This document shows positions 9,801 through 57,320 of a stretch of DNA of 64,000 nucleotides, one piece after another. Source of the stretch: Marsupella aquatica (lineage: Eukaryota; Plantae; Marchantiophyta); assembly GCA_973895155.1 (NCBI GenBank), contig OZ316894.1, positions 19,134,805-19,198,804 on the forward strand. Reading direction: 5' to 3'. Position numbers and translations under genes: made by a program. Every line of letters begins with the position of its first letter. The stretch's first letter is position 1. The notes beneath the pieces are model-generated. The model had not been told where the DNA came from and made no database searches. It saw nothing but the letters and a program-made list of their open reading frames with translations.

Positions 9801-11437
9801 GTTGTTCCACGCAAATTTAAATGAGTCTGGCAATCATTGCTCGTACACCTACAAAGTTTCCTAAGGTCAAATTGAGTGTGACAGGAGATGACACTAACTA
9901 GTCGAGCTCTCAACCCTTTCTCCTAGAAGTTTTCAACGAATTCACAGTCGACGACCCCGATTGATGAGAAGCCAGTATCTTTAAGTCCGGAGAGCAATGT
10001 GCGGCATGAACGACCTTTCCTGAAATCACTTCGACAGGAAGGCAGAGATAGCCATTCTCAATAATATATGCACAACGCTTATCACGTACTGCTGAACTTT
10101 TAATACGAGATCACCAGCAGTATGTATCATCGAAGACTGTGCAATACTCACTATCGCCATTCCCCTATCATAACCATCACAAATTGCTCTCGCTTTCTCA
10201 TGACCGTCATCAATTGCTATCTGTTTGTCATTAACAAAACAAACTGCAATCTCTCTTTGGTGAAGATCAGAAAGAGCCCAAAGTTTTCCGGACTTGTTAT
10301 ACACTTTTAATTCTCATCCAGGCTGTAGGTTCTGTGGCCAGAAGGCTGCCACGGGCGCTGCATAATGACCAGAGTTTTGGATATGGAATGGCAATCTGAA
10401 ACATATCCTCATGAAAAACAATCGTCGGACTTAACACCATACAGAAAACAGAGTTTACTGTCCAGTTTGAATACCTGACGAAGTGGGATGATCCGCGAAA
10501 GCATTCCGATAAGGATGTCTGTATTCAGGCTCCTCTCATGAGCTTCGTCCAGGACAACAACGGAATATTTCCTCAGCAGGAAGTCTGCCTGCAACAATAT
10601 CATCCATTACATAAATCTTCTTACACTGACTTTTTCAGTAGTTGTACTTGTAGGCACTTATTTGAGTGCGCATGAATACGTACAAACACAGCTGCGAAAC
10701 CCTTAGAAGCATTGCAATAGCCAGAAGATCTAACACAGGAGGCACCATACCTGTAGTTCTCTCAAAAGTATTCCGTCCGTCATGAATTTGATGCAGCTTT
10801 TCTCCCCAATTTTACGATCATGGCGGACTTGGAATCCTACTTCTTGACCTAAACTCACACTCAGCTCATGGGCGACCCTCCGTGCAGTTGCTAGAACGGC
10901 AACCCTCCTGGGTTGGGTCACACCTATGATTCCAGATCGCTCTGGACAATGAGGAGAACCATACCCTGCTTCATATAGAAACTGCAAAACGGCAGATTCA
11001 CTGGGTGAGAATGCTTCCGAGCTAAAGTTCATTACGAAGGGTGTGCGTCCCTCCGGATTTTCTCTCAGTAAGTTGTTATTCATACAAGGGCATTGGCACC
11101 CAACCTGTGGAACCTGGGTGGTCTTGCCACACCCAGTTTCTCCGCACACGATGACAATCGGATTCTCCTGAATTGCCTCCATAATTTCCTGTTCCATCAT
11201 CACAATTGGGAGACTTTCTCGACTCTTTTCCACGTCATCCGGTCTCCGAACATGCACCACATACTTCGGCTTTCTGACTGCAGGCGGCTGTTTGGAAACG
11301 CTCAAAGCCTCTCCCTGTTCCTTAAATTCGCTCTCTAGCTGGGCAACTTTCCCCTTTGCTTTCTTCTTCTTCCTTTGCTTGCGACGTCTCCTCCTTTCCA
11401 TGCCGTCAACACCCACAGAGCTCAGAGCGTTTTCCAT
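6869..11437 (-). CDS. DEAH13: DEAH-box ATP-dependent RNA helicase, DEAH13/DHX37 (Dhr1)-like, 40S ribosome biogenesis
   Basis: Exons inferred from GT-AG junctions: 11437-11105, 10981-10751, 10588-10475, 9798-8560, 8407-6869. Motifs: GETGCGKTT (I), TQPRRVA (Ia), MTDGILLRE, DEAHERS (II), MSAT (III), FLTGQREV, ATNVAETSITI (V), QRAGRAGRTGPGHCYRLYS (VI), followed by HA2/OB-fold-like C-terminus. The acidic insert in RecA2 is typical of Dhr1/DHX37. The start codon is uncertain and upstream exons may exist. Confidence 0.93.
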
Positions 11438-11939
11438 CACAGAAACGTACCCAACCAGCCACTCTCTGCGGCGTACCTCGAAATTAAGGTCACACTCTCC
11501 AACCTCTATTTGCCTGACTCGAATACTTCAGCCATCCAGCACCTTCGTGATACAATCTCATTTCTAAAGGCATTGAGAAACTCCGTAGACTCTTCCGAGA
11601 TGGAAGGCACGAATCCCACACAAGCTCACTCCATCGAAATTCATCGAGGAAAGGCAGGAATCTAGTTGATCCAAAACCTACAGCAACAGCAGGTGGGAAA
11701 TGATAGGTTGGACAATAAGATGCTCGACAAACTGAATTGCAATGAAATTTTGATTGATGGATCCACACATGAAAAGCTCGGGGGAGTCGAGAGGATAATA
11801 ATGCATTACTGTAGTAGTCACCTCAAGTCTTCGGAGTGTGCTTTGAATTATTAGATTAGGGTATAGAGCTGAGCTCAACTCTTTGGTGGGCCTTGTTCAT
11901 CTACCTCCTGTTATTCTGTAGCGTTTCTCTGTCGTCCCC

Positions 11940-14340
11940 TGCGCCATCAGAGCTCCGTCCATCCAGGATGAAGCGGTGGACTGGGGGTTTAGGGTTTAGC
12001 CAGGGTTCCGTCCATCCACCGTCTGTTTACTGTGAAACCGAGTGTGGCCTGTAAAATAACAGAGGGTGTGTACTCGCCACTGTAAAATAACCGAGGGTGT
12101 CCATTTGCTACTGTAAAACCGAGTGCTGTACTCTATATCAAGAGAGGGTGTCGTTTGCTACTGTAGAACCTACTGTTGTACTGTAAAATAACCCAGGGTG
12201 ACCGTTTGCAACTGTAAAACAGAGTGCTGCTCTGGAAAATAACAGAGGGTGTCCGCTTGCTACTGTAAAATGGCTGTGTACTGTGAAATAACTGAGGGTG
12301 TCCGTTTGCAACTGGAGGGTGTCCGCTTGCTACTGTACTGTAAAATCACTGAGGGAGTCTGTTTGCTACTGTAAAACCAAGTGCTGTACTGTAAAATAAC
12401 AGAGGGTGTCTGCTTGCTACTATAAAACGGCTGCTGTACTGTCAAATAACTGAGGGTGTCGGTTTGCTACTGTAAAACCAAGTGCTGTACTGCAATTAAC
12501 AGAGGGTGTCTTTGCACTGTAAAACCGAGTGCTGTACTGTAAAATAACAGAGGGTGTCGGTTGGCTACTGTAAAACCTAGTGCCGCACTGTCAAATAACA
12601 GAGGGTGTCTGTTTGCAACTGCGAAAATGAATGGTATACTGTAAACTATTAGAGTGTCTGCTTGCTATTTAAAACCATTTGCTGTACTGTGTAAAATAAC
12701 AGGGGGTTTCAACCGAGCCTGTTGTCAGTCTGTGACAGAGCTGCCAGGAGTGTTTATGGAGGGCTTTGCTTGCCAAAGTGAAAAATGTCCTGCCATTGTT
12801 CCCCTGCATTGCAAACCTGGCAACGGGCTTTGCTCGCCATAGCCAAAAATGTCCTCACATTATTCCCCTGCGTTGCAAACATGGCAGCCCGGCCCTGCCT
12901 TTCTCCCACTCTGCCCTCACACTCGATTGCCCCCTGCTCCAGACAGGGCTCCATCCATCTGGGATGAAGCCGTGGTTAGGGTTTGGTGCTGTCCGTCCAA
13001 TACCAGTTTGCTACTCTAGAGTGTGTCAACTGAAGTTGTTAGAGCACTAGGGTGTGTCAAAGCACAGCCATAACTCTCAGTTATGGCTCAAGACATAAGA
13101 CGCTTTTACAACCCGGACAAAATCACTATGGGTTACAGAAATACATATCCATAAGGGGGACATGTCCCAAAAAATAAAGCCTTAACACTTTGGTTACGGG
13201 AGAACTTTGACACACCTACTCCCACTGTTTTGCCAAACAGGGTGTCTGGGAGCATTTGTGGCAGGCTTGGCTCCACATTGCAAACAGGGCGCCCGACCCC
13301 ACCTTTTCCCAACTCCACCATGGCACTCTGTTTCCCCCTGCGCCACACTCTGTTTCCCCCTGCGCCAGCCCAAGCTCCGACCATCTGAGCTGAAGCGGTG
13401 GTTGGGGGTTTAGGGTTTAGCTAGGGTTTCATCCAGCCAGTGCCTATTTGGTTGCTATAAAACTGACAATTATACTATAGAATAACAAAGGATGCCAACT
13501 AAATCTGAACCATCTGTCAGTCTGGCAAACAGAGTAGTCTGGAGCATTTATGGTGGGCTTGGCTCACTAAGCCAAAATTGGCCTCCCCTGTTCCTTGCGT
13601 TGCAAACATGGCAAACCTGGCCCTGCCTTTTTCCCACTCTGCCCTAGCACTTGGTTGTCCCCTACACCAGCCATAGCTCTATCTGAACCAGTGGTTGGGG
13701 GTCATGGTTTAGCCAGAGTTCCGTCTACCTAGTGTCAGTTTGCTGCTGTAAAACTGAGTGCTACTATAATGTAACAAAGGGTGCCAACTGAACCTGTTAG
13801 AGCACTCCCCCTGGTTTGCCAACAGAGCTACTGAGAGAGTTGATGGCAGGCTTGAGTTGCCATGGCCAGAAATGGTCTCCCATTGTTCCCCTGCATTGCA
13901 AACACAGCAGCCTGGCCCTGCCATTTGCTCACCAGTCCCTGGCACTCTATGATGCCCTTCTCCAGCCAGAGCTCTTTCCATGAGGGCTAAAGTGGTGGTT
14001 GGGTTTATCCATCCAACGTCCAGTTGCTACTGTAAAACTGAACCTTTTGAAGCACTCCCACCAGCCTGCCAACACAGGGTGGTTGGGAGTGTCATGCCAG
14101 GCTTGGCTTGTCATAGCCAAAAATGGCCTCCCACCATGTCCCTGCATTGCAAGCATGGTGGCCCATTTTCCTAGTCTGCGTTGGCACTCTGTCATCCCCT
14201 ATGCCAGCCAGAGCTCCGTCCAACCGGGGCAATTCGGAGGTTGGGGATTTAGGTTTAGCCAGGGTTTGGTTTATCCTGCACCCATTTGCTGCTGTAAAAC
14301 TGAGTGCTGTACTACAGTGGTGTCATCTCGGTTTGCCCAG
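11940..14340. repeat. Higher-order satellite: ~250-300 bp units with an internally amplified ~50 bp subrepeat and telomere-like motifs
   Basis: The unit start GAGCTC(C/T).TC...G(C/T)GGT.G..GGGTTTAG(GGTTTAG) recurs at ~11950, 12945, 13372, 13675, 13968 and 14210. TTCCCCTGCATTGCAAAC is repeated in the units. From 12025 to 12720 the subunit TTGCTACTGTAAAAC.GAGTGCTGTACTGTAAAATAACAGAGGGTGTC is tandemly repeated more than 10 times. Confidence 0.9.
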
Positions 14341-15807: not shown

Positions 15808-15868
15808 GAGAGATTCGGAGAAATCCTTTCCATCGCTAATTTTGCCTGCAAAGTGGTATGGTTGAGCA

Positions 15869-17533
15869 ATGGCGATGCAGCATAGGTGTAAACTTGCCTG
15901 CCACCTGATCAGCACCCACTTCGGCGAATTGGTGGAGAAGGTTTGCAGTTGCTTGATCTACAAAGGTCCGCTAGCTCTTCCGGAAATCGCTCGATATACA
16001 GAACTGAATCCCGGTCAGCTCCGCAACTGCCTCCTTGTTCTGGTTCAACATAATTGTGTTCAGGGCTACAAAGTCGAGCACGAAGCCATCGGACAGGCTG
16101 GTCCGAAGGTATCCACCTCTTACATTGCTATTGTCAACAACATTCTTCACAGGGTGCGATTTCCCAAGTTTCTTGTAACTGTTCGTGATGAAATTGGAGA
16201 CGAGACTGAGTCTTTATTAGAAGGTCTGCTGGAGCATGGGAGGCTGACTTTGGAGCAAGTAATACAAAGGGCTGCTGCACGACAGGGCAAAGCGGAAGCA
16301 GAGGTGGAAACACTCCAGAAGCAAACCTTTGCAGCTCTTGTGCGCTCACACTATATCGAACGCTGTCCTTCATCGGAGCCCAATGTGGCTCCCAAGTCTA
16401 TTGAGCCACCCAAAAAGGTACCACGGGGAACATCAAAGGCTAAAAGCATCAAGGAGGCAGTAAAGCTTCTTGAAAGTGAAGAACGGAGGATTCTCAATGC
16501 TGCGTCTGTACTCGACACAGAGCGGTTTCGGATGCCATCTTCTCTGGAAGAAGTGGGAGAAACAAACTCTGACGAACCCATGACAGAGCCTGTGGGTGCA
16601 GCGGGGCAGAAAAGAAAGCGAGATGCATTGGACATGGATGCAAAGACTATGGCCCTTATTGATGAGAAAGAGGTGTTGTGGCGTGCTAATTACGACGAGC
16701 TCATTCGCAAACTGAGACACCAGGCTTGTGTAGCTCAAGTCAAAGCAAGGATAGATTCTACAGCAGGTGTAGTGCTGGAGGCAATGCTGGAAAGTACGAG
16801 TCAGGAAACTAGGTACAGGCAGCAAACTTCTGTTTCCCTTTCCATGCCCGTAATCATGGAGGCAGTGACAAGAACTCCAGAGGGTCGCACTATGACAATG
16901 GAACGCATTCGTGGGGCTCTGCATCAGATGTCCTCGGAATCCACAGGTTTCTTGAGCAAGTTTGGTGATGGTGGGAGCAGCTATGTCATCAATATCCACA
17001 AAATCGTTGAACTTGCACGACGAAATGAGGTTGAGGGTATAGTGCTACAACGATTTGGACGCGAATGTTGTCGTATTTACAGACTTCTTATGATGAAGGG
17101 TCAAATGGAACAAAAGCAGATTGCAGGAATGGCCATGGTGCAGCTTAAAAGTGCCAGGGAGCTACTGTACAGGTTATTGAAGGAGCAGTATGTTATAGTT
17201 CAGGAGGTTGCAAAGACAGCGGAGCATTCTGCACAAAAATCATTTTACTTGTGGAATATAAACTGGCAAACTGTACAAGACCTAGTGCTAGACGACATGT
17301 ATCATGCTGCAGCAAACTTGGGGCAACGCCTTGCACAGGAGCTGGAACAAGAACAAGAGGTATTGGAACTTCTAAAACAAATCCAAGCTGCCAAGGCAGC
17401 TGGGGCAGAGAGTCATGTTACTCTGACTCAACGCCAACATGAGCAAGTGAAGCGGATCCGAGGTGTAGCTTCTGTGCTTGAATCTTCTTTGCTGCACCTT
17501 GACGATGCCATCCTGTTGTTTCATGATTTCTAG
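15869..17533 (+). CDS. RPC3: DNA-directed RNA polymerase III subunit RPC3 (RPC82/POLR3C family), intronless
   Basis: 554-aa uninterrupted ORF with N-terminal HFGELVEKVCSCL..KG.L...LRNCLLVLVQHNCV winged helix, RVRFPKF, LLEHGRLT, WRANYD, RFGRECCRIYRLL and KSFYLWNIN, all characteristic of RPC3. Confidence 0.92.
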   Translation: MAMQHRCKLACHLISTHFGELVEKVCSCLIYKGPLALPEIARYTELNPGQLRNCLLVLVQHNCVQGYKVEHEAIGQAGPKVSTSYIAIVNNILHRVRFPKFLVTVRDEIGDETESLLEGLLEHGRLTLEQVIQRAAARQGKAEAEVETLQKQTFAALVRSHYIERCPSSEPNVAPKSIEPPKKVPRGTSKAKSIKEAVKLLESEERRILNAASVLDTERFRMPSSLEEVGETNSDEPMTEPVGAAGQKRKRDALDMDAKTMALIDEKEVLWRANYDELIRKLRHQACVAQVKARIDSTAGVVLEAMLESTSQETRYRQQTSVSLSMPVIMEAVTRTPEGRTMTMERIRGALHQMSSESTGFLSKFGDGGSSYVINIHKIVELARRNEVEGIVLQRFGRECCRIYRLLMMKGQMEQKQIAGMAMVQLKSARELLYRLLKEQYVIVQEVAKTAEHSAQKSFYLWNINWQTVQDLVLDDMYHAAANLGQRLAQELEQEQEVLELLKQIQAAKAAGAESHVTLTQRQHEQVKRIRGVASVLESSLLHLDDAILLFHDF

Positions 17534-25194: not shown

Positions 25195-25375
25195 ACAGAA
25201 ATATATATCAATGTGCCCAAGGGCAAAAAACGCCGAACCGGGAGACATGATCCCAATGGCAAGGCAACCCAATGAAGGGAAGGAACGAGGGGAAAGGGCC
25301 CCAAGAAAAACAAGTCAAGGGGACCCCAAGCAAAACCCAACAAAGAAGCCAGAGCCGAAAACAGGATTGTCATGC
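25195..25375. repeat. Dispersed repeat, probably a retroposon 3' tail on the minus strand; homolog at ~37525-37690
   Basis: TATATCAATGTGCCCAAGGGCAAAAAACGCCGAACCGGGAGACATGATCCCAATGGCAAGGCAACCCAATGAAGG aligns by eye with TATATCACACCGCCACAAAGCAAAAGGCGCTTAACCCTGAGATACAATCCCAAAGGCAGGAGACCCAATAAAGG at 37528. Confidence 0.55.
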
Positions 25376-26146
25376 CGAGGGACAGTGCCGCTTGTGCACA
25401 TCGGCATGTCCCTCGCATGCCCGCTAGGTATGGTTAGGGCTAGTGTACTACTTGAGTTAGTGTCATGTTCTTGTAGCGTGTCTGGGCTGTTCTTGAAGCA
25501 AAAGGGGTTTGTTAGTGTGACGCCTGGACCCGGTCCTACTTAGGGCATGTTTTTCTTTGTCGTTCTTCAGTTCTTCTTGAATCGTTGTGAGACAGTTTTT
25601 CAGAGGCTGCTCGTTGGTTCCGTACACGGAATTCACACAGTGATTCGTTAGATGCTCCCGGCCGATCTTGGCATCTCGCCGGTTTTCGATTCGATTTCAG
25701 TACGTTTGTTTCTATCACGCCTTTTATTCAAGAAGAACTCTGTCGCCGGGTTAGCGGTGAAGGGAAGAAGATCGAAGACGCTGTGCTTCTCAATTGCTCG
25801 AGACAGTTGACGCTTTTCCGCTGATGCCGGTGCAATTTCTATGGAAAAACGTTGAGCGATGGGGTGGAAGTTATGGCTTTTGTGTATACACTTAAGTATA
25901 TACACTTAAGTCAAACAGGCCCCCCCCCTCACTTTTTTCCTTCCACTTTGCTTTCAGGGTTTTCCATTTCCCGGCCACGGCTGCCATCCTGCATCGGCTG
26001 CCGCGCGACAACTTCCGCATTGCCTCGGCCACCGTGCGACTGCTTCTCGACTACATAGGGCCTCGCGCCCATTTTCTTTTCGCCCTTTGCTGCCATTTTT
26101 GCCTTTGCCTCGCCCATTTTCCTTCCTTCTTTTCCTTACCGTTATC

Positions 26147-26563
26147 AGCAATTAAAGCACTTAGATGAAGGGGGAGCGAGTGTGCAAGGAGAGGGCACGA
26201 GGCCCTATGCTGCAATTTAAGGAGGGGAGGGGAGCGAGTGTGCCAGGATAGGGCACGAGCCCCTATGCTGCATTAAAGGGGGAGGGGGAGTACCTACGAC
26301 TCCCTTCTCGGGAGTCCTCCTGCAGGGCACGAAGCCCAGATAGCAGCATTAAAGAGGGGGGAGACAGAGCCGAGGCAGCGCAAGGAGTGGGCACAAGGCC
26401 CTATGAAGAATTAAAGGGGAGAGGGGGAGTTCACGTCGACTCCCCTCGGGAGTCCTGCCAGGCACAAGGCACCCAGCACATTTAAGAGGGGAGGGGGAGC
26501 TCGTAGCCCCACCTCTTCAGGAGCTCATAAGGAGGGGGGTGCGAAGCCCTATGCACAGGGCTC
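26147..26563 (+). repeat. Six-unit repeat/variable-spacer array in the retroelement 5' leader
   Basis: Each 55-80 bp unit is TTAA(A)-G-rich(GGGGAGGGGGA)-variable middle-GG(G)CAC(G/A)A(A/G)GCCC-TATGC-like. The hairpin motif occurs at ~26193, 26251, 26325, 26389, 26461 and 26537. Confidence 0.85.
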
Positions 26564-29500
26564 ATTTCTTTTTCTTCGCCTCACTCTTCCCGTTTTCTTT
26601 TCGCCTTTTTCGGCTTGTCTCGCTTTTTCGCCGCGCGACGATCGACCTGTTTCCATCTCTCGGGTCCACATCGGGCTGATGTGTATACACTTCAGATTCT
26701 GTGTCCCACTTGGCCCGGTTTTCTTTTCCCGCTGACGCGCACCTCTTTGGTTTCCCTTTTCCTGCCAGTTTTTGGGTCCACATAGGGGCCCGATGTATAC
26801 ACTTAAGGGGGGGGGCCACTTCTAGTTTCTTTTCCCGGATTTCTTTATTGCCGCCAACATTAAGCCTTTCCCGAGTTTTTAAGGGGTTTTCCTTTGCCGA
26901 CGATTTTTCTTTGTGACGGTTTTTCTGTGTGTTTACACATTTGACACATTGCTACCTTGTACCGTTTGTCTCCTTTGTGGGTTTTATTTCCTAGCCTTGG
27001 GGCTGCCATTCCTTTTTCTTGTCAATTTCTTTCCCATTGGCACCCCGGGTGAGCATGCAGCATGTCAGCCGACGAGCCGAGAGGTAGCAGCTCATCGCCA
27101 CCGACACCCCGGTACCACTTACAGAGTGATCCATGACCGTTGGTGCCAATTTCATTGGAGTCTCGGCAATTTCGACGACGTCAGCAGACAGCAGCAGCAC
27201 CCACACCACGCAACCCTTCTGCTACATTTGGCGGTCGCTTCACCTCTACCCCGAAGCTTGCTATCACTTCTTTGCCTTTTTCTCCTTCTGCATCAGTGAT
27301 TGTTCCAGCTTCACCGACATACAGCATGGATGCCAGTCACTCATCTGGCCGCATTGAGCGCTTCAGCAGGCGGCCAGGCACTGTCTCTTTGCGTGAGTTC
27401 AAATCCACTTTCTACATTGTCGTTTACGAATTGGAGTTGAAGTATGGCAGCAATTTCACAAATGCTTTTGCATTTAAGCAGCTAGCCAGGTATGTGCACC
27501 ACGAGGCTTTGGATGTGTATGAGTAGCATTCTCAACGGCTGCTTGCTGTCACACAATTGCCTAACCCTGCCTATGCCACTGCAATTGCGGCTGCCTCACA
27601 ACTGGCATTACAGAATGCCATTGCAGCCCATGTTGCTGCTCCTGCCACTTCCCCTCCTACTCTAGTTCCCACCACTGCACCAGTTACTCCCACTGTCTTG
27701 GCACAGGCTACATCAGGCATTTCTCCCACCATTGATTCCCCTGCCTTTGCTGATCCAGTGGCTGAGTTTTTCCAGGTTCTTGAATTGGAATTCCCAATCA
27801 AGAGTGCTGACAAAATCATGCAGTTGGCCACCTTTGTGAGGCAGCGCGATGAAACATTGAAGATGCTATATCGCCGGCTTCTCAAGCTGAAGGAAGACAC
27901 CCAGAGCATCACTGACCTGGAAGCTGCTCATCGCTATCTTCGCGCATTGGAGGGCACACCAGCTCTCCATTCGCAAGTGTTGCAGCAAGTATTCTCAGAG
28001 TTTGGAGACAGCTACACCCTGCTCAATGTCTATGATACTGCTGAGAAACTTGAGTTGGCCCATGCACATTATGAGGCCAGTATTGCGCGTCCACCGCGAT
28101 CCAGGTACCAGGCTGCTGCCCCTACACTGCCCACCCCTTCTTGTGTGCCACAGTATGGTTCCAAGACCAAGCCAGCACATGCTGCTTTCATGCTGCCATC
28201 TTGCAACTACTGTGGTAACCCCAATCACAAGGCTAATGAATGTGATATTGTTGCTGAGGACCTGTCTTGTGATTTTTGCGGGAAAGTGGGCCACTTGGAG
28301 GCAGTTTGTTTTGCCAAATTCCCCGAGAGGAAGCAGCTACGACAGCAGGCCACTCATCCTACTCCTGCTTCCACTCCCCCACCAGCTAGGAAGGCTCCTA
28401 CTACATCAATTGCTCCTCCTTCCAGTGGCAAAGCATCCAATGCTAACAAATTGCCCAAGCAGCCACAGAAGCAACCAGCTCAGAAGGAGGCTCACAACGC
28501 ACAGGCAACTCAACTCCAGTCTCTGACTCATGAGGTTGAGTCCTTACATGCCCAACTTGCCAACATCAAAGGCAAGTCCACTACCTCTGCTGGTCCTTCT
28601 CAACCGGCTGGTCACGTGCAACCCATCCCTGGCCCAGGCACCACTGACAGTTCAGCACCTCTACCCCGCTCTTTCTATGGCTTGCCATTTGATGCTCATA
28701 TGGGTGAGTGTGTGCTGTCCTCTGCTACACAGCCTGGCCTTGTCGCAGAATTTTCAGATTCATTCTGCCCTTCCTATTTTGCTTACCAGCAGGCCAGTGC
28801 TGCCTCCCGTATTGCTCCCACACGCCGCATTGTACAGGCTGATGGTCTTGCTGCTGGTCCTATGACTAGAGCCGGGGGAGCTCGGGCTGTCATGCCCCAA
28901 TCTTTTCAGCCACTCACACTTGCTGAAGAGCGCACCTTGTTGGCGAGGGGGGAGGGAGCTGCAGCTACATCCATTCCACCACCAAGTGCTGTTGACATTT
29001 CACAGGGAGCTGTTTTTCCTAAGCTGCTTGAGCATTTCACCTCCGGTATGGCACAAAGGATTCTTACCACTCCACTTTTCAGTTGCCATGATTTACAGCT
29101 GGATGCTAGAGCTGTCATCAGAGCGCTAGAGGGCTCACTGCATTCTTCATCAGCCCCTATGACACCGGTTTTGGAGGTCCAATCTCATGTAAATACTGGA
29201 CCTTCTTCTTCTCCATTGCATGCTTCCACTGGTTTGGCTATCCCAGTACCGATTTCCAGTGGTAGAGATGACAGTATTGCTGCAGATTGTGTGACCAGAG
29301 CTACACTTGATTCTGGTCATGCTGCTCCATCTTTCCTGGCTATGCTGTTGAGTGAGAAGACTGTGGACACTAACTCCCTTCACAAGGTACCTCATCATTT
29401 GCCAAAGGTGGTGCCTAGTGACAGGACTTTAGTTTCCACCACCATTGCCATTGTTGACAACAGGAATTCAGCAGTCAAGTTGGAGGGTCACACTCCTCAG

Positions 29501-30178
29501 GAGGTCATGCTAGACACAGGCGCTCAACCAGTAATCTTGGGCATTCAGTTTGCCAAGGAGATGGGACTACTGACTGATCATTTACAGCAATCCAGGTGGC
29601 ACATTCGGACTACTAGTGGCACTGTGGAGGATGTGTTGGGTGAGAGTTCTACTTTACTCACTCTCACTTTTAATGGAGGTACAGATCAAGAATTGCATTT
29701 CCCAGTCCGATGTTTGGTTACCAATGCCACTACGTATGATGTGCTCATTGGCCAGGAGGCTTTGTTCCCACCAAGTTTTACCATTGACAACTGGCATGAG
29801 CATGCATACTACAGAGTTGATTGGCATACGGATGACTCACACTTGGGCTACATTCCACTTGATTTACATGGTGCCCATACCCCTATGGCTCACCACTGTG
29901 TGTTGAAAGCAGTGCACACAGCTACCTATGTCAACCACCCATTGCAGGATTGGATTGAGGAGGATGATGATGAGGTGGCTGCTGCACATGCTGCTACACG
30001 TATAGCAGCACTTTCCAGCAACGTGGATCATCAACCAGAGGTGGTACAACGGCTCCAAGCAGCCCATGGACCTTTAGTGGCTGCATTGCGCAAATTTGAG
30101 GACCTTGGGCAGCACAATGGACAACCAATAGCCCCAATCTTGAGCGCACCAGTTACATGGACTCCTCCTTCAGATGGC

Positions 30179-31120
30179 CTTACATTGCTTGAGCTTTTTG
30201 GTGGCATTTCTACAGGCCTGGAAGCTCTCCTACAGTCTGGCATGGTGGTGAAGCAGTACATCTATGTGGATATTGATCCAGGTGCAAGGCAAGTGTCTGA
30301 ATCTCGTCTGCTGGAATTTTCAGAGCGATTTCCCCAGCAGTTTCCACATAGTGTATGGAAGTCTGCATTTTCTTTCTTCCCTCCAGATATCCAGCTTGTC
30401 CAGCACCGGCACTTAACCCTTCTTGGCTCCCTTGATTTGATCATAGCTGGTTGGGAATGCCAAGGGTTTTCAGCTGCTGGTCACGGTGCTGGACTGCATG
30501 ATTCTCGTTCTGGCCTTTTCACAGCATTGGTTCAGATTCTCACCTGGGCTCAATCCCTTTATCCTGCTGTTGGTTATATCATTGAGAATACTCCATCTCA
30601 GTTTGACCAGCGTCCACAGGTCAAAGAGGATTTCAGTGTGGTCCAGCACTACTTGGGACCACCCCTTCTCATTGATGCAGTGCACTGTGGTTCTTATGCA
30701 CATCGTCTTCGTAACTTTTGGACTAACCTTGCACCACCTTCCTTGTTGGAGTTGGCTCTTCACCACACATCCAGGGACACTAACCTTACAGTGGACCAGA
30801 TTTTGGATCCTGACAGTTCTTGCCAACCAGTTACACGGCAAGAGCCAGCACCTTGGTATCCAGCCAATACCATTGGACAACCCCGTGCTGCTTGGCCTAC
30901 ATTTGTGTCCTTTCCAGGTGCACATGCTTTTCAGGGTGATGGTCCTGGTCTGGTTTATCGACATTCTACCAGTACATGGGATGAACCTAGTCCTGAGGAG
31001 AGAGAACGGGCTATGGGCTTCCAACCCGGTACTACAGGTCACACCAAAATCACCAGGCTGGCCAGGAATGCTTTACTTGGCAGGGTAATGGATCTCAATG
31101 CTCTCACTTGGCTTCTGGTC
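30179..31120 (+). other. DNMT3-like C5 cytosine DNA methyltransferase domain embedded between protease and RT
   Basis: Motif I LELFGGISTG (DNMT3A LSLFDGIATG); II YIYVDID; IV DLIIAGWECQGFS (Cys codon 30458); GLHDSRSGLF; VI YIIENT; VIII IDA...AHRLRNFWTNL (DNMT3A IDA...AHRARYFWGNL); IX EERERAMGF; X TRLARNALLGR (DNMT3A SRLARQRLLGR). Motifs are in canonical, non-permuted order. Confidence 0.93.
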
Positions 31121-34100
31121 ACTTGCATCCTTTTTCAGATGTACATTCCTCCAGTATTAGGAGCTCCAGCCTTACCACTCCACAGTGCTGCTGCATGGCA
31201 TCCAGACCAGGTGCACTTACCTCTGTCCAACACTCACCACTTCAGTCCAAGTGTTGGGGGGGAGGAGGTCCCTTGTAATGCGGCTGACATTATTTCTGAG
31301 TTTCATGGTGTGGACCACTTCAGATCAGCAGGTACAACAGGCCTTGGAGAGGCCTCATCACCTTATCAGCAGCATGCTAGCAGCTTGGACAGTGGAGAGG
31401 CTGGCACTTCTGGCTCTTCAAGCACAAGTACATCAGGTCCTGTTCCTAGTGTTGCCAACTACACATTTATCATGGGCAACCACCTAAGTAAAAGACAGAA
31501 GGACCAGCTGTTGAATTTGCTCCTCAAGCATGAGAACGTGTTTGCTTTCTCTATGAAGGACTTGGGTAAGTGCAAGACTATGCAGTTCTCCATTGAGTTG
31601 GCTGATGAAACACCTATCTTCAGGCGGAGACACCGTTTGAGTAAGCATGAGTGGCAGCTGGTGGATGAGAGGTGCCAAGAGCTTTATGAAGCTGGTCTTA
31701 TTCAGCCATCTACATCAGATTTTGCGGCAGCTACAGTGATGCCAGCAAAGAAGGATTCCAGTGGATTGTGGACAGAGAAGCGCATGTGTGGGGACTACAG
31801 GCCATTGAACCTGGTCACAGCCCAGGACAGGTACCCCATGCCGCGGCCAGAGGAGCTATTTGACAGCATTGGAGACTCAGACATCTTCACTCTTGTGGAT
31901 CTAAGGCAAGGCTTCAACCAGATTTTGCTGCTTGCAAAGGACCGCAAGAAAATAGCTTTCCATGGTAGTAACCAACTATGGGAGTGGTTGGTGATGCCAT
32001 TTGGCTTGAAGAATGCGCCCATATTCTTTCAAAGAGTCATGGACCAGGTTCTTCAAGGTGCTGAGTTTCTGAAATGCTACATTGATGATGTGTTGGTCCA
32101 CAGCAAAGGATTTGACCAGCATCTACTTGACCTTGAGGAGCTATTCATAAGGCTTAAGAAGGTGAACCTAAAGATACACCCCAAGAAGTGTGAATTTGCT
32201 GTCAGATCAGTAGTATATCTTGGGCATCGCATTCTTCCAAATGGAACCATGGCTCACTGGGCCAAGGTGGTATCCATCTTGGAAATGCCCACTCCTACCG
32301 ATGTTCACACTTTGAGGAGTTTTATTGGGTTGTGCAATTACTACCGGATCTACATCAAAGATTTCAGTACCATTGCACACCCATTGTATGCTTTGTTGAA
32401 AAAGAATGTGACTTGGACATGGAGTACAGATGTTGAGGCAGCATTTGCCACTTTGAAGGAGAAGCTATCAGAATACCCGGTGCTGAGAAGACCTGATTTC
32501 AACAAGGTCTTTGTGCTACACACAGATTGGAGTGCCCTTGGGATTGGTGCCATTCTAGGCCAGCATGGTGAGGAAGGTAAAGAGTACGTCATTGCCTATG
32601 CATCCAGGAGCAACAATCAGGCAGAGAGTCATTATTCTTCTTATGAGGGTGAATGCCTTGCTGTTGTGTGGGCTGTCATATATTACAGGCCCTACCTCTA
32701 TGGGACCAGGTTTGTTCTCTACACCGACCACCAGCCCTTGAAGTGGTTGATGACCAACGACAAGCTTACTGGCAAGCTTGCTCGTTGGGCACTCATACTC
32801 CAAGAGTATGATTTTGAGGTAATTCATAGGCTTGGTGTGACACATCAAAATGCTGACACTATGTCCCGCAGCCCTTTGATTGCCTCTGATGATCCCTCAG
32901 ATGCACGGCAGGATTTTGACCAGGTTTCCATCCTGCCTACATTTCATGCATCTACCTATCTTGCTTTGCTGCCATGCTACATTGTTGACCAACCTGTGGT
33001 GGACATATGGGAGGACAGCGACACTCTGAGATTTCTGCAGGATGGGGAGTAACCCACCCATGTTACTGCTGCCCAGAGAGACCGAATTCAACAAAGGTCC
33101 AAGCGCTACTTGTGGAAGGGAGATCATCTTGTGCGCTGCTTGCCAGACAGGGAAGTGGTGGTTCCACCCATTCATGAGAGGGTTGGCCTTATCCGTAAGG
33201 TACATTCTGAGCTTGGTCATTTTGGTGTTAAGAGGACTTATAGCCTCTTGGTCCCCCATTATCATTGGAGAGGCATGCATGGCCAGGTTCGAGATGTTAT
33301 TGCCCGGTGTGAGCAGTGTGATAGGGTAAGGACTTCTTTCGCATCTCGGCAACCCACACTTCATCCACTCCCTATTCAGGGCATGTTTTATCGTTGGTCA
33401 TGTGATTTGGCTGGAGAATTACCCCTCACATCTCGGGGTAATCTCTACATCATGATCATGATAGAGCATTTCTCCAAGTGGATAGAACTTGTGGCATTGC
33501 CGGATAAGACCTCCCGTAGCACCAGCCAGACATTCTTGCAACAAGTTCTCAGCCGCTTTGGAGCTTGTGCAGAATGTCTCACTGACCAGGGCTCAGAGTT
33601 TAGAGGAGAGTTCCAGGAGCTGCTTGATCAGGCTCTCATTGATCATCGCCGGACATCACAAGATCACCCACAGGCAGATGGCTTGGCAGAGCGCATGGTT
33701 CAGACATGCAAGAAGGGCCTTCGGAAGATCTGCCTCACCAAAAACAAGGAGGATTGGGACCTGGCCTTACCCTACATTGCCATGGGGTATAGGATGTCCA
33801 GACATGCATCACTGTCTAACTTTTCTCCCTACTTCTTGTTGTTTGGTCGTCACCCAGTTCCACCTTCTGCTATTGCTTCTCACATGCTTCAGGTGGTGGA
33901 CTTGGATTCAACTGTGACTTGGTCTGATGTGATCTCTGAGAGGGCTGCCCTATTCAGGAGGGTTATGCCCATGGCCATGGAGAATTTGGCCATTGCACAG
34001 CACAGGGACACACTGCGTTATGCACACACACGAGGGGGCACTTTTCAGCCCAAGGTCAGGAAGTTTGAAGTGGGAGATTTTGTGTACTTGCAGTGGCAAG

Positions 34101-34297
34101 CTAACGACACCCTGGACACCTCTACCAGTCGCACTATTCTCAAGGTCAAAGCTATTCGACCGTCTGGAGTGCTAGAGTTACAAGGGGCAGATGGGCGCAC
34201 AATTGCTGACAATGCCAAGAATTGCACCCCTTGTCATCTGCCTAACTTGGATCCCACCATTGTGACTTCTACTTGGATTCCACCTGTGGACTACCCT

Positions 34298-34432
34298 TGC
34301 AAAGTGTGTTTGCGAATTGATGATGCTGACCAGATGCTGCTGTGTGACAATTGCAATGGAGGGTACCATCTTTTCTGCCTTCGGCCTGAACTTACCCAGG
34401 TGCCAGAAGGGTTATGGTTTTGCCCTTCTTGT
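34298..34432 (+). other. PHD finger (C4HC3) at the integrase C-terminus
   Basis: CKVC-x11-CDNC-x4-H-x2-C-x14-CPSC with the typical LLCD, P.L..VP.G.W.C signature. Confidence 0.93.
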
Positions 34433-37400
34433 GCTCCACATGCTATCTGACTTTTCTTCAGCCCTCCTTTTGGCTGTGGTCTGGGGGGGATACAGAGGTT
34501 TACACCTCCACTACGTACATACCACCTCAGTTGCTTTTTCTTGGCACTTGTGAATGTGATTGGACTTTTTCTATGCATGTTGGTTGCTAGCAGCTTGCAC
34601 ATATGCATTGCCGGTGACTTGTATGTTTTTGATACACTATGGCTACGATACTATATGTCACGACAGGATGGCACCAAGGCAATAAGGCGAACCTACAAGC
34701 GAGAAACCAGACAAAAATGATCAGAGGCCAAAAGTGGTGGACACGTGTCAGGACGGGAGTGGGGCCGGCCGCATGTGCGGCCACCAAACCCGGAGGAGGC
34801 CCGGGGGCACGAGGTCACTCCCGGCGAGTGACCTCCCAACGGTGAGGCCCACCCGCCAGCATTAAAGCCCCCTGCCCTGCGGGAAGCCCTCCAAGAAAGG
34901 GGGGTGCACACGCGCGGTCCCGCACCCAAACCCCCCGCGCCTCCTCCCGTCACCCTCCGCCTCCGCCTTGCCTCCGCCTCGGATGGAGTTGAGTAGTCTT
35001 CAAAAAGGAACCTTGGTATAGAGTTGCTTGTTAAGATTTTACAAGAGTGCACACATCATGTCCTTGGTATTTTCAGCTTGTTGACTTTACTTGTAACCAC
35101 TCACATAAAAGTTTTAAAGAAAGACTACGCTCAACTATTACTAGTATTTTGCACAACATTCTCAGGAAGCAGTTGTCAAATATCGTACAACCCATGATTT
35201 GCACCAACCCCGAGTTGATTACAGTTGACTTGAAGCTCACAGTGGTCATTTAGAGACTTCAAGTCCTACAGATCTTAATTAATTGAACTCTGATAAACTG
35301 GAATTAAGCTTGAGATTAACTTTTCTCATATAATGTACTTTTTCCTCCGTGGTCCTTGTGTATTTTTCTTTTGATTTCCTTTGTTTTACCCTTTTATTGG
35401 GTTTATTGCCTTTGGGATTATGTCACCCGGGTATGGCTCCTTAGTTCTTCAATTGGCACAAGCACCAGGCTCAATATCAATTCATTGCCCATATGTTACA
35501 TCATAAGTAAACATGATTTTGTTGTGCCAAAGGACTTGTATCAGAGCAATCCACACATATTTCCCTTCTGTCAACCAGGAAGTTCAGGCCAGAAGGAAAG
35601 TATATTAAAGCCTGTTCAACAATTCAATGGCCTTTCAAAGTCTGAGACACGCAGGCTATTGTTTCAGCGCCTCCACCCCCCCTGAGATTGCCAGATCTAG
35701 CAAGTCCTGGAAATTCAGGGCTACAGTCCAAACTAAGGCAACAATTGAGAAACCTTGCCCCAAGGACTAGCTCAAGCATGCCCTAGGCAAAGGCTGGGAG
35801 GGGGGAGGAGAACACTCTGCCAGACTTCTTAAGGAAACATGACATGTAGTAAGCACTCGTTGTAATGCAGGTCCACAAGTCTTGATCTATAAGCACATGT
35901 GCAGCAAGAATAAAATACTGCTTGATATCTTTGAAAATGGAAATGACAGTCAGAAGTCAAATGAGAAGACCAAAGAGCGAACAGATCCTTGGGTCCCAGA
36001 AGGGTTGTCAACCCTTACTTTGGCTGAAAGTTTTAATGACCTAGAGTCTAGCACATGTTTTCACCACCAAGTCTTGGATGAGTTATTTTCACTAGCCTGA
36101 CCACCCATTCTTTGAACATAAATTGCGGGAAAAAGCACAACGTGAAAAAAAAAGATTCATTTGCTTGTTGGCAGTAAGGTCTACTCTAGACAGTAGGCCA
36201 TGACCTCACTCCTGTTTGGAAATTTCTGTTATAGATATCCCACATGTTGACTAGTTGTTAGAGCATCTTTGTGCTTTAGTATATAGTCTATTGTGTTAGG
36301 TGCAGGCTCCCAGAAAGACACTCCAAGAGGACACTTATCCATCTTATGCACTATGTTACAAGTGCGCAGGATATCATTTATTCTTTTCTCCATATATTTG
36401 TGTGCTGCATTACCCTATAAGTGCATTGTAAATTGCTTCTGCACTTCCTGATATGTGTACATGTAATTTCATGCACAATTTCATGCACTTATATAATTTT
36501 CTGCTGCAATTATCAATAAATGCATCTTATGTATATGCAGATAAATGCATGTGTAATCTTATAATCTAAATGAGGGTACATGCTTATTGAGGGTCTACTC
36601 ATGCAAAGAGTATTTTTTGTTGCCTTTGCAGCTTAGTTAGGAAATTAGGTGACAACGTGGTTGGCTTGCACTTACCTGCATAATACACTTATAGATGCTG
36701 CACTTATGCATGTTAGATTGTAGTTACACGCAACGAGGAACAATCATAGGACTTCCCTCGTCTACAACACAACACGTACAAACATAGGAAAACGAGCCCA
36801 GAGAAAACACCAGGAATCATCGCTCTACTTTTGGGATATTGTTCACAAAAATTAATGGCTCAATTACTGATTTGCTTGTCCCCTCGGTTGCATGCATACT
36901 CAAATCTTTCTCGATGATCAGCTGTACTACCATAGAGTACAAGCTGACTGACTTTAGTCAAGAAAAAGTAAATCAAGGTCCCAACCAGAGTCAACCCAGG
37001 CCCACACCAAGCAAAATCGGAGGCAATTAGCAAATGGAATGATTTGAGTATCTTGACTTGGTGATGTAACACAAAAGCTACTTTATTTTACTACTTGATG
37101 AAGGCTTTTAGGAGGGTACCTGCTACATAGGTGCCATAATACCATTAGGGGTGGTCGAAGGTGGTCCATAGGAACCAATATTGTTTTATACATATAGAAA
37201 GTAGCTAAGATGGTGACTCCTTCCTTGCCCTAGGAAGTAGTTCTCTATTACATGCTTGACAGATTTGAATGAACCTTCATATTTTCCGTGATCAAAGGAG
37301 GACTATTAGATCTAGCTAAAGTTTACGACTTCAGTAAGGATTTAGGCCGAAGAATTGAAAATATCTCAAAACTTTTCTTTGTACATTTTGGAAGAGGCTT

Positions 37401-46854: not shown

Positions 46855-46887
46855 TTTGAAGGCGGGCCTGTCCTTCAGAAATCGAAG

Positions 46888-47643
46888 ATGAGTAGCAACG
46901 GAAGCAACATGAGCAAGGGAAGCAGGCAGACCAAGAGGCCTGCACCGTTGAAGATGGTGAAGGAGGAGGTGAGGCAATATCGACCTCCCGTGATCATCCA
47001 CACCTATTCGCCCAAGATTATCCACGTAGATCCAGCGGAGTTCTCGACGCTCGTTCAAAGTCTTACCGGTCTGACCGGACGAGGGCACAAGCGAAAACCT
47101 GAGGCCTCTCCAAGAGTCATCGAGCCGAAGGCGGACGAGTTTAACTGTCCATCGCCGACTCCCAGTACTGATTCTGGAATCCTTGCTGCCTTTGAAGGAA
47201 CGCATGGATTGCTATCACCTCGTGGACCTCTCGCAAGCTTCGAACCGTTTTATCATCAGTCAGGAGGGTTTGACGGCTCTTGCGCCTCACAGCAAGCTGC
47301 CGCTGACAAGGCCAGTACTATGTTCTCCAACGCCGTCCTCGCAGCTGCGAAAGCTACCGCGGTCACTGGAGGGGCTCAGTACTCGCCATTGTTCTCCTCC
47401 GGGTTTCCCAGTTCTCTGCCACACCTCTTCTCACCGCTGCCTTCGCCCAATTTATTGTCTCCCAGCTTCATGGCAGATTTGCCCGTCCTCTCCCCGGGCT
47501 CATACCAGTCTTTCGATTCCTTCGGTTCGCATCCGTTCGTGCCGTCTCCAGGCTATGGCAAATACACGAGCACGGGGATGGTGCCGTCCCCCGGAAGCAG
47601 CAATGCGTTCAAGGAGATGGCTTTGATGATATCTAGGCAATAG
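46888..47643 (+). CDS. VQ motif-containing protein (MKS1-like), intronless, 251 aa
   Basis: PVIIHTYSPKIIHVDPAEFSTLVQSLTG matches FxxxVQxLTG. The upstream RPAPL motif and multiple Ser-Pro (LLSP, FSP) MAPK-type sites fit this family. Confidence 0.92.
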   Translation: MSSNGSNMSKGSRQTKRPAPLKMVKEEVRQYRPPVIIHTYSPKIIHVDPAEFSTLVQSLTGLTGRGHKRKPEASPRVIEPKADEFNCPSPTPSTDSGILAAFEGTHGLLSPRGPLASFEPFYHQSGGFDGSCASQQAAADKASTMFSNAVLAAAKATAVTGGAQYSPLFSSGFPSSLPHLFSPLPSPNLLSPSFMADLPVLSPGSYQSFDSFGSHPFVPSPGYGKYTSTGMVPSPGSSNAFKEMALMISRQ

Positions 47644-54609: not shown

Positions 54610-57000
54610 TGAATTATTATTATTATTATTGAAAAAGGGGGGGCGCATGGTCCGTCAATAACATGCAAGGGGACAAACACCACCCAAGAAAGAAAGAAAC
54701 GGGCCCGACACCCAGGGGCTGGACAACCCTGCAAACCACAAAACCCTAGTCAGGCCAGGGGATCCGACACAACCACCATACACTATCCTCACTAGAGTCA
54801 CGAGAGTCATTCTTGCTACATTGAGTGGCTCTCCCACTAGTAGAATGCTGTCTACTCCTACTCCTACTCCACTCAGTATGGTATTGCCTACTCTAGTATA
54901 ACTCTTATCCATGACTGCAGTTGGTAGTCAATTTGTGCTTAGGGTTCCTGAGATTGGTCCACCTATCCTTGTGCATCCAGCCCTGGTCATCCTGACTGTT
55001 ACAAACCCATGTGAACTCTCCCAACCAAGTATTGCTGAGTTTCAATCATCCGTGTCAAGAGAAATAGGGTTCTCAATTGTCTTCCATTGTTGAAGCACCC
55101 TATGGAGTTGATTCCTTTTCCTTTCAGACAGGCTGATGTCCAACATAGTGTTGAGATGGATCTCAGTCTGTCTTAGCACAACCCATCCGCGGAGTCTCCC
55201 CAAGAACTGGGAATCTCAGTAATCATGGGTTTGCATCTTAATAGCAGTTTTCAAGATGTTGTAAAATGATCCTTGAGTGACTGACATTGTATCTAACCCA
55301 TTGAGCAGAGTGCACACCTCCCTCCACCTAGCAATAACAATGTTGCAGCTAAAGAACATGTGTTCAATGTTTTCAACTTGTACCTTACACCAATTGCACA
55401 TGCCGTCTAACACCCCCCAATGTTGAGCCCTGCCATTAGAAGGAGATGTGCCCAAGCCTGAGTGTTCTCCCACCCTCGGGGGTTTCACTTCCACAAAAAT
55501 GGCATATCACGTGCGACGAAGGATAGGGTCGTTTTATTGGTTCTAAGGGAAGACTTAAGAATTTTTGTAGAAGAACAATAGGGTCTTTTAAATTCAATTT
55601 TGAGACTTATAAGAACATTAGGGCCTTTTTAATCCAATTTTGAGAATATTCCAAGAATATTCCAACTTTATAGGGGTTAAAAACTAAAAAAAATTCTTAC
55701 ATTTTAGGGGGTCTGAGGCCTAAAAACATCGCAGGCGATGGGGAGGTCCCCATATAGTGAGACCCCCGAGCTCCCACCAGTTGAGGGGGACATCTCCGCT
55801 TTCTTGGATTCTTGATGGTGTGCGTCTCCATCTCCTCAAGATCCTCTCTGCTGCTGTTTCCCGTTGTCACCTTAGTCAAGGCCTGCCCTTGTAAATTTTG
55901 GTTTGATTACTTGAGTGTGATGACTGTTCGTCAGCAGAGCTTGCAGGGATGTCCTGGAAGCCCGATTCCTTGATGGGGGAGCTTGGGATTGATTTCTTGG
56001 TGTTGTGCAACATTGTTGGCGCTCTCTGAAATCTCAAGAGGTATGGATGGGATTGGAGCAATCTCTCCTTCTTCAAGTTCTGCTATCTCAGATAATGTTG
56101 TGAATGAGTTGTTCCCGTCCAGGCTTTTTATTCTTGTCCCAACATTCTCTTTTCCCCTTTGCTTGGGTGTGAGCTGTCACCTCAGTAAACCCATCCTTGT
56201 CAGTTAGGCCTTGTGTTTCCCCTTTGCCCTGTTGTGCATGTATGTGTGTTTTTGGCAGTCCTGCTGTGCAGCCTGTTGACTTAATTGGGTTTTTTACGAC
56301 AGTATTAATTTGGCAATGTGGCCACGTTGCTTACAAGCAAAGCAAGCATCTAGGAGAGTGCAATATATAACATCCACAAAAAAACTCCGATATTGGGGAT
56401 AGTCCGTTCCATGTATTCCACCAGGTTCACATTTAGATTGCATAGTACACAACCACATACTAATATGTGAAAATTTGCTTCTAGCAAAGTCGGTCTGTGC
56501 ATATATAGAGCACCTGACCAATTTTAGCTAGCATCTGGTTGACATAATACTCAAATGCAGAATTAGGAGCAAGAGATCAACCGAGACCGGGCCGGGCTCT
56601 GGCAGATCACATTGCTTAATTTAGCATCAAAATCAGGTGTTCACAACATAGCAATTATTTACCATTTTCCTGCCCATGTTCAGTTATGGTTCAAGCTGCA
56701 TAATAGAGTTTAATTTGTTCTTCAAGTGTGGACACAATGATCAGAATAGTGTATCTAGCCAGAACTTTGATCTGCTCAATGAATATTCTCATTCTTCTGC
56801 CAATCACATCATGGGCCCATTCTTCAAAATAATCTCTGAATGGATTGAAATCTTAACGAGACCATTGCTCAACCGTCCTCACTGTCTGCACAAGCAACCA
56901 GGCAAGTAACCAAACACTTTGGTAAGTAACCCATAGGATCTAGGCCTTCCAATACTAGCATCCCAACTCAAGCTCAACAGACATTGGTAACTAGGTCAGC
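54610..57000 (-). mobile_element. Degenerate LINE: ORF1 remnant joined to ORF2 zf-RVT C-terminus and 3' UTR, interrupted by a MITE
   Basis: ORF1-type knuckle DACFACKQRGHIA (~56310-56352). zf-RVT GMCNWCKVQVENIEHMFFSC..VIARW (~55325-55405). The (TAA)n-like tail appears as ATTATTATT at ~54614-54630 on the + strand. Confidence 0.7.
55475..55770. mobile_element. MITE, 296 bp, 15-bp TIRs, 8-bp TSD
   Basis: TIRs CTCGGGGGTTTCACT / AGTGAGACCCCCGAG. Perfect TSD CTCCCACC at 55467-55474 and 55771-55778. Confidence 0.95.
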
Positions 57001-57023
57001 GAATAGAACCTCCCGGGCCCGCA

Positions 57024-57320
57024 CTCGGGGGTCTCACTATATGGGGACCTCCCCATCACCTGCGACGTTTTTAGGCCTCGGACCCCCTAAAATGTAAGAA
57101 TTTTTTTTTAGTTTTTAACCCCTATAAAGTTGGAATATTCTTGGAATATTCTCAAAATTGGATTAAAAAGACCCTAATGTTCTTATCAGTCTCAAAATTG
57201 AATTTAAAAGACCCTATTGTTCTTCTACAAAAATTCTTAAGTCTTTCCTTAGAACCAATAAAATGACCCTATCCTTCGTCGCACGTGATATACCATTTTT
57301 GTGGAAGTGAAACCCCCGAG
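57024..57320. mobile_element. MITE, 297 bp, near-identical inverted copy of 55475-55770, 8-bp TSD
   Basis: TIRs CTCGGGGGTCTCACT / AGTGAAACCCCCGAG. Perfect TSD GGCCCGCA at 57016-57023 and 57321-57328. Confidence 0.95.

Follow-up and report, generated by a model that had tools for sequence, protein, structure and literature searches.

A DNMT3 domain placed inside the Pol of a Gypsy element, together with DIRS-like repeats combined with Gypsy domains, was described as KnitGypsy-Dnmt3 in Klebsormidium nitens (PMC5890265, as far as the accessible text goes). Chromoviruses (MAGGY, Tcn1, Tf1/Sushi) carry a histone reader on the integrase C-terminus, and a self-priming site is described for Tf1/Sushi and predicted for Tcn1 (accessible parts of PMC6317226 and PMC3350952); the targeting of MAGGY is taken as cited in the available text of 10.1101/2021.11.30.470311. 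A PHD finger within a Gypsy Gag-Pol occurs in Gypsy-7a_cRei of Chlamydomonas reinhardtii, whose intergenic insertions stand 2.6 times above chance and for which targeting was proposed (10.1101/2022.06.16.496473, accessible text). The EpiLTRs/DAM-LTRs join a reader domain and a DNA methyltransferase in one LTR element; their authors treat Gypsy-DNMT3 as a separate acquisition, and a PHD is not discussed in the part of the preprint that is available (10.64898/2026.05.21.726589).

The element described here shares a feature with each of these systems. It lies in a window of 64,000 nucleotides (the whole stretch of DNA that was analysed) from Marsupella aquatica, and by the published description, in its accessible text, it probably belongs to the KnitGypsy-Dnmt3 lineage. 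The K. nitens protein P0120 falls in the integrase clade of the window copy with an SH-aLRT of 98, in a quick tree that does not contain the published KnitGypsy sequences, and a second K. nitens protein, P0008, joins an integrase to a PHD. The explanation favoured here, which is given a slightly better than even chance, combines an H3-tail-reading PHD on the integrase of a dead Gypsy-DNMT3 copy, a DNMT3 that works separately, self-priming of reverse transcription, and integration through an internal junction.

Structure and State of the Element

The element is of Gypsy type, 9.3 kb long, and encodes Gag, protease, DNMT3, reverse transcriptase (RT), RNase H, integrase and PHD in this order (Table 1). 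The best PDB match of its RT is the Ty3 RT (E 1e-64), and RT-RNase H is closest to Ty3. The Pfam scan covered 9 of the 16 open reading frames of the window, seven short ones being left out. Neither SH3_Tf2-1 nor Integrase_p58_C of Pfam matches the window integrase, and no Pfam Chromo match was obtained at the integrase C-terminus of the window element; a canonical chromovirus was rejected as a candidate, the integrase C-terminus being without a chromodomain. No relatives of the RT were found in phage records, and the search of the window for tRNA genes found none.

The window copy is dead, since its gag-pol frame contains two premature stops that relatives read through, the first in 15 of 20 and the second in 75 of 75. 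The idea of a programmed stop before the integrase was rejected on the same count of 75 relatives. CpG is depleted inside the element (0.25, compared with 0.52-0.88 elsewhere) and CHG is not; as host methylation explains this depletion equally well, it is not counted for DNMT activity.

Within the 5′ leader, positions 25835-26768 are covered by related contigs much more sparsely than the rest of the element and contain short repeats at 26171-26424; this segment may be subfamily-specific. Elsewhere in the window, positions 55473-57322 hold an element whose terminal inverted repeats are 221 nt long and 98% complementary, and an end related to it is found near 61122-61210. Degenerate tandem arrays, built from units of roughly 50 nt and of 70-120 nt, are located at 12049-12707 and 1953-2431.

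Table 1. Features located in the window, with the basis of each assignment.
Feature	Position	Strand	Basis
DHX37-like helicase, host gene	6869-11527	-	Pfam; very long uninterrupted frame
RPC82, host gene	15866-17533	+	Pfam; very long uninterrupted frame
Target-site duplication (TSD), left copy, 4 bp	25364-25367	+	Same 4 bp as 34666-34669
Repeat A, left end, TG start	25368-25727	+	Contig joints 34665 to 25368 and 25727 to 34490; start motif common to related loci
Putative self-primer (predicted transcript 5′ end)	25570-25582	+	Perfect 13-nt complement of 25726-25738
Putative self-priming primer-binding site, adjoins A	25728-25738	+	Complementarity to a stretch within A
Single gag-pol frame	27326-34450	+	Broken by premature stops 27524-27526 and 33050-33052
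Two Gag CCHC zinc knuckles	28202-28309	+	Seen in the sequence; no Pfam score
Aspartic protease	29474-29764	+	Pfam gag-asp_proteas, E 7e-06, slightly under the curated cut-off
DNMT3-like C5 cytosine methyltransferase	30167-31171	+	Pfam, motifs, PDB matches; catalytic Cys codon 30458-30460
Reverse transcriptase core	31772-32233	+	Pfam RVT_1; YIDD at 32078-32089
RNase H	32420-32809	+	Pfam RT_RNaseH
Integrase zinc finger and DDE core	33167-33697	+	Pfam Integrase_H2C2 and rve; DDE motifs located
PHD finger C4HC3, integrase C-terminus	34298-34432	+	Pfam, PDB matches, ligand positions
Polypurine tract G7, abuts B	34483-34489	+	Like arrangement in related loci
Repeat B, right end, CA finish	34490-34665	+	Related loci and contig joints; no A-B after B in the window copy
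TSD, right copy, 4 bp	34666-34669	+	Matches the left copy
VQ-motif protein, host gene	46855-47643	+	Pfam; very long uninterrupted frame

The PHD Finger and Its Predicted Ligand

The first-pass annotation had described an intact C4HC3 PHD at the extreme C-terminus of the integrase, and the analysis bears this out; its phrase "instead of a chromodomain" would further imply that one domain replaced the other. All eight zinc ligands are present with canonical spacing, as is the terminal Trp, and the finger, which scores E 6.7e-12 against Pfam PHD, shares its frame with Integrase_H2C2 and rve. Its span is exact: the codon of the first Cys starts at 34298, that of the last occupies 34430-34432, and the His is at 34367; only five residues (Ala-Pro-His-Ala-Ile) follow before the stop at 34448-34450. 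The PDB search gave 89 matches to solved structures at E<=0.001, led by WSTF, CHD4, ATXR5, Lid/KDM5 PHD1 and BAZ2B. The WSTF PHD, the best single match, is a poor histone binder, which counts against a histone ligand.

The MLLCD motif and the GYH are found as had been claimed, with Gly standing where K4me3 readers carry Trp. This Trp of the K4me3 cage, which precedes the zinc His by two residues, is present in 1 of 140 relatives, and the window PHD is, judged by its residues, of the class without a K4me3 cage. The Asp said to lie just before Cys1 sits three residues upstream, not adjacent. Of the 133 parsable fingers, 67 have an acidic residue at -3 from Cys1, 21 have one at -4 and 1 has one at -2; in all, 79 have one somewhere from -2 to -4, with no single one conserved.

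The best-conserved non-ligand positions of the 140 fingers are those of the A1 and R2 pocket. Asp follows Cys3 in 130 and Leu precedes it in 110; Pro, Gly and Trp of the P-x-G-x-W stretch are conserved in 133, 116 and 123, and Val or Ile precedes that Pro in 121. The window PHD has both the Asp after Cys3 and the P-x-G-x-W of PHD readers of unmethylated H3. We take these conserved positions, in a tentative register, to be equivalent to D312, L310, V330 and W335 of KDM5A. In KDM5A PHD1, these four residues bind R2, T3 and A1 of H3 (10.1101/715474, accessible text). ING, BPTF and TAF3 fingers are absent from the top 60 PDB matches of the family profile. The window PHD also has an Asp five residues before Cys3, which is presumably the "acidic wall" Asp. 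An acidic wall was reported to be exclusive with the cage Trp and to mark readers of a helical K4-unmethylated tail (PMC5415848, in the part available). In the family, only 50 of the 133 fingers have it, or 84 if the neighbouring position is counted, and since the acidic residues that would cap K4 vary in this way, K4me0 and K4me1 cannot be distinguished as ligands.

The earlier suggestion that the finger shows the features of an unmodified-H3 reader therefore holds for the missing cage Trp and the retained A1/R2 pocket, and fails for the cited Asp, which is poorly conserved. On these residues, the PHD is likely not a K4me3 reader and likely a reader of unmethylated or low-methylated H3. From the chromodomain integrases and the PHD-bearing Gypsy-7a, we infer by analogy that it may tether integration, and a steering of insertions to H3K4-unmethylated chromatin, as first proposed, is plausible. 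The 53 right-hand flanks of related loci (GC 0.32) yielded no target-site motif.

The variability of the K4-contacting acidic residues leaves room for another ligand, such as H3K4me1, DNA, or a protein of the host or of the element itself, in which case the finger would serve tethering or particle assembly without avoiding promoters. KDM5A PHD1 accepts K4me1 too (10.1101/715474, accessible text), and a weak PTM/DIR17 Tudor-like domain was matched in 3 of the 19 relatives scanned, every time below the curated cut-off. Conservation of the A1/R2 pocket, in turn, would fit binding of the H3 N-terminus, and a different ligand is considered improbable. The Tudor-like domain stands behind the PHD or replaces it in P0157, P0191 and P0201.

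Distribution and Conservation in the Family

That PHD-bearing retroelements were already known in algae, as had been remarked at the outset, is confirmed by the printed record, which includes cnidarian ones as well. REM1 is reportedly grouped with Gypsy-7a_cRei as a PHD-bearing Gypsy. For the window element, the nearest named integrase is that of the liverwort Calypogeia fissa (86%), and the named hosts of the family are Calypogeia, Marchantia, Klebsormidium, Closterium, Haematococcus, Monoraphidium, Chlamydomonas eustigma and Chromochloris. Of the 319 integrase relatives, the best 120 comprise 82 with the PHD and 35 that end too early; the 3 long-enough integrases without a match look frameshifted inside the finger. 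The PHD is carried by 140 of 215 proteins from liverwort, Klebsormidium and chlorophytes.

The pairing of PHD and DNMT, to which the first-pass annotation had attached its main interest, extends through the lineage. The DNMT has 95 relatives (1012-3222 aa), 68 of which include an integrase, and 58 of these 68 also include the PHD; the remaining 10 consist of two with degenerate fingers, four that end early and four that form a clade having DNMT without PHD. At the DNA level, a DNMT is present in 29 of 30 related loci that span protease to RT. The metagenome loci used are the best 80 of 586, with 67-81% integrase identity; they were partly selected by a PHD peptide pattern, so the presence of the PHD in 80/80 of them is not independent evidence. 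In this old family, which reaches from green algae to liverworts, PHD and DNMT go together as a rule.

The PHD is under purifying selection, with a pN of 0.157 over 68 loci, similar to that of the integrase tail; pN is given and not dN/dS because synonymous sites are saturated for the PHD, the integrase tail and the RT. In the runs of two organisms (organisms A and B), common variants number 2 in the 135-nt PHD, both silent, compared with 18 in the 176 nt of repeat B. In 44 thinned relatives, PHD distances follow integrase distances (rho 0.36, reached in 0/2000 permutations) and follow DNMT distances more weakly (rho 0.24, 22/2000 permutations). A host fragment caught by chance in the window copy alone has nothing in its favour except the dead state of this copy; with a PHD that is present in so many relatives, conserved and co-inherited with the integrase, this reading retains a negligible probability. 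Family-wide presence and conservation refute it.

Some relatives carry further domains. P0107 of Chromochloris has an integrase-PHD followed by a weak match to an adenine methyltransferase (E 0.0027, below the cut-off), which suggests that the PHD rides with other methyltransferases too, and P0150 has a G-patch between DNMT and integrase.

The DNMT3 Domain and the Reader-Writer Question

The methyltransferase of the window copy is intronless and located inside the Gypsy Pol. It matches Pfam DNA_methylase at E 8.4e-06, and all of its 29 PDB matches are DNMT3A/B/C. By sequence, the motif set of an active C5 methyltransferase is complete (I, IV with Cys, VI with Glu-Asn, VIII with Arg-x-Arg). Over the 95 relatives, the Cys is kept in 93, Glu-Asn in 95, and the two Arg of Arg-x-Arg in 94 and 95; in motif IV, the Cys is preceded by Glu in 60, including the window copy, and by Pro in 32.

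In the window, the DNMT lies about 3.1 kb upstream of the PHD, between protease and RT, at a distance of about 1,040 residues that includes RT, RNase H and integrase, and a premature TAA parts it from the integrase frame. Its place differs within the family: the window clade has it in the gap between protease and RT, and most other relatives in the gap between RNase H and integrase. Full RT-RH-DNMT-INT-PHD proteins make up 41 of the 95 relatives, and in another 22 the DNMT is terminal in a separate Gag/protease-DNMT protein. The PHD always ends the integrase, wherever the DNMT sits. Proteins such as P0127, P0142, P0146 and P0173 (Marchantia) are Gag-protease-DNMT proteins that end 5-164 residues past the DNMT, and some annotated Marchantia DNMT-like genes may be the first open reading frame of a Gypsy-DNMT3 element.

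Since the DNMT has changed its place in the polyprotein and the PHD has kept to the end of the integrase, an ADD-like reader-writer unit, the central proposal of the first-pass annotation, is unsupported. A rival account would make PHD and DNMT3 one unit comparable to ADD-DNMT3, in which the finger, by reading H3K4me0, would activate the methyltransferase or place it where the element inserts. It draws on the co-occurrence of the two domains in 58/68 relatives and of the DNMT in 29/30 loci, on the position of the DNMT directly before the integrase in most other relatives, which makes a DNMT-integrase-PHD product possible, and on the chance that both proteins share one pre-integration complex. 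Against it stand the three domains between DNMT and PHD in the window clade, the 22 proteins that stop after the DNMT, the clade of 4 relatives that keeps DNMT without PHD, and the finger itself, a canonical C4HC3 PHD with no ADD among the 60 PDB matches listed. The Gypsy protease would, moreover, normally separate the DNMT from the integrase-PHD by cleavage. A single reading and writing unit is thus given only a small probability. Methylation of the element's own cDNA would be the simpler role for the DNMT; de Mendoza et al. propose such own-cDNA methylation for DIRS, and the K. nitens DNMT gave no methylation in yeast, a result that the authors deem inconclusive (PMC5890265, accessible text).

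Permuted Ends and the Proposed Integration Route

No pair of LTRs turned up when the window was searched for repeats, and the ends of the element were defined from related loci and related contigs aligned to it. Related loci end in two forms, a long one, A...ORFs...B-A-B, and a short one, A...ORFs...B. After removal of 12 duplicates, 29 loci end in B-A-B and 27 in B alone; a further 5 have another form or are cut. The two contig joints given in Table 1, the first of which passes through two extra bases, fix the limits of A and B and establish the long form in the family of the host. The window copy is of the short kind, A...B; its tips are TG...CA, and a perfect 4-bp TSD flanks it. Among the 16 loci with both ends, at least 3 of the 4 TSD bases agree in 12, one left end being uncertain, and the other 4 have no TSD at the located ends.

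The two kinds of junction differ in precision. All 30 de-duplicated loci have a spacer of exactly 2 nt from B to A, while the 31 joints from A to B comprise 13 blunt ones, 8 with 2-nt microhomology and ten other, differing forms. In the same 30 loci the spacer reads AC in 11, GT in 8, GC in 6 and AT in 5; this set is a reverse-complement pair plus two palindromic hybrids, and template switching at a near-palindrome might yield it.

The putative self-priming site is backed by several counts. None of 20000 shuffles of A reaches a complement of 13 nt, an equivalent complement of at least 11 of 13 is found in 13 of 16 related loci, and the helix shows two compensatory changes between the window and the loci, the A repeats otherwise not aligning. 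Folding gives the priming region a z-score of only -1.72, with a region start chosen by hand. The layout departs from the canonical LTR in that the polypurine tract comes before B, whereas the TG starts A. As the priming site and the polypurine tract bound B-NN-A, this segment would be the LTR of reverse transcription, and as the integrated copy has A at its start and B at its finish, the attachment sites would be internal, in the form of an abutted CA-NN-TG.

On the proposed route, the RNA would prime itself in the manner of Tf1, and reverse transcription would give a cDNA with B-NN-A at each end. Within the left copy, the integrase would cut the internal CA-NN-TG with a 2-nt stagger and so generate ordinary processed ends. 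The true cDNA tips would then be joined to each other by end joining, leaving the ragged A-to-B joint of the long form, and in the short form, as in the window copy, they would have collapsed by way of the B repeats. This shortening may belong to the insertion itself or to a recombination that followed it. The PHD would meanwhile grip an unmethylated or low-methylated H3 tail and keep integration tethered to nucleosomes that lie outside H3K4me3 promoters, and the DNMT3 domain would act separately, on the element's own cDNA. A related version, with a self-priming clade that spans the green lineage, attachment sites within the LTR, a PHD that picks H3K4-unmethylated nucleosomes and a co-packaged DNMT3 that pre-methylates the cDNA, is held at a little less than an even chance. 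Cleavage of a junction has an in vitro precedent in HIV-1 integrase, which cuts the palindromic LTR-LTR junction (PMC1905944, in the accessible portion). A simple two-LTR circle predicts the mirror form A-B-NN-A...B as well, and this form was seen in 0 of the 16 loci with a left end. The left junction becomes double-stranded first in reverse transcription and could thereby bias the outcome against the mirror form, although this is an ad hoc addition.

A rebuild of the DIRS/PAT kind would need no explanation for the missing mirror form. Here the B-A junction would be copied into a circle, the A-to-B joint would be inherited, and the short A...B form would come solely from later recombination between two B copies that lie 300 bp from each other, with the TSD retained; the repeat order is also that of split-repeat DIRS, as noted for KnitGypsy-Dnmt3 (PMC5890265, accessible text). 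This account is at odds with a polypurine tract that abuts B and a covarying self-priming site that abuts A, which make B-NN-A an ordinary LTR, with the contrast between ragged A-to-B and exact B-to-A junctions, and with three A-to-B joints whose one or two extra bases resemble those after the internal A. The element also encodes a DDE integrase and no tyrosine recombinase. Such a rebuild is accordingly regarded as unlikely. A tyrosine-recombinase element of the DIRS/PAT type proper was rejected, a DDE integrase and a 4-bp TSD being present.

Comparison with Known Systems

Integrase readers, LTR elements with a reader and a methyltransferase, and the DIRS-like repeats of KnitGypsy-Dnmt3 are already in print. 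Searches of the accessible literature turned up no text that joins the PHD to the Gypsy-DNMT3 family or describes a priming or junction mechanism for Gypsy-DNMT3 ends; subscription journals, Repbase, theses, figures and preprint supplements may hold either. The PHD alone is a modest addition to the known integrase readers, the algal PHDs and the DNMT3 lineage. The family is wide (chlorophytes, Klebsormidium, Closterium and liverworts), and searches that expect two full LTRs would miss its repeats. Its anatomy points to an integrase acting at an internal junction, by which the question of the circle junction as a substrate becomes testable; if true, it would be a natural case of junction cleavage as the normal route of integration.

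In the accessible main text and supplements of the KnitGypsy-Dnmt3 report, a PHD is absent, although Fig. 4c might show one; the report concerns one alga, with no land plants and no chlorophytes, and gives, in the text available, no TSD, priming site or end mechanism (PMC5890265). Gypsy-7a_cRei differs by the absence of a methyltransferase from its domain legend, in the text available, and by a near-complete LTR pair (10.1101/2022.06.16.496473). The EpiLTRs/DAM-LTRs differ by their chromodomain and by adenine and DNMT4-related methyltransferases (10.64898/2026.05.21.726589, accessible text). At the level of the finger, KDM5A PHD1 and the BAZ2A-B PHD resemble the window finger in the A1/R2 pocket, in the lack of the cage Trp and presumably in the acidic wall (10.1101/715474 and PMC5415848, available parts), while the Asp before Cys1 is shifted in the window family and varies within it. 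Compared with the chromoviruses, finally, the window element has a PHD and no chromodomain, a DNMT3, and split, permuted repeats in place of two full LTRs.
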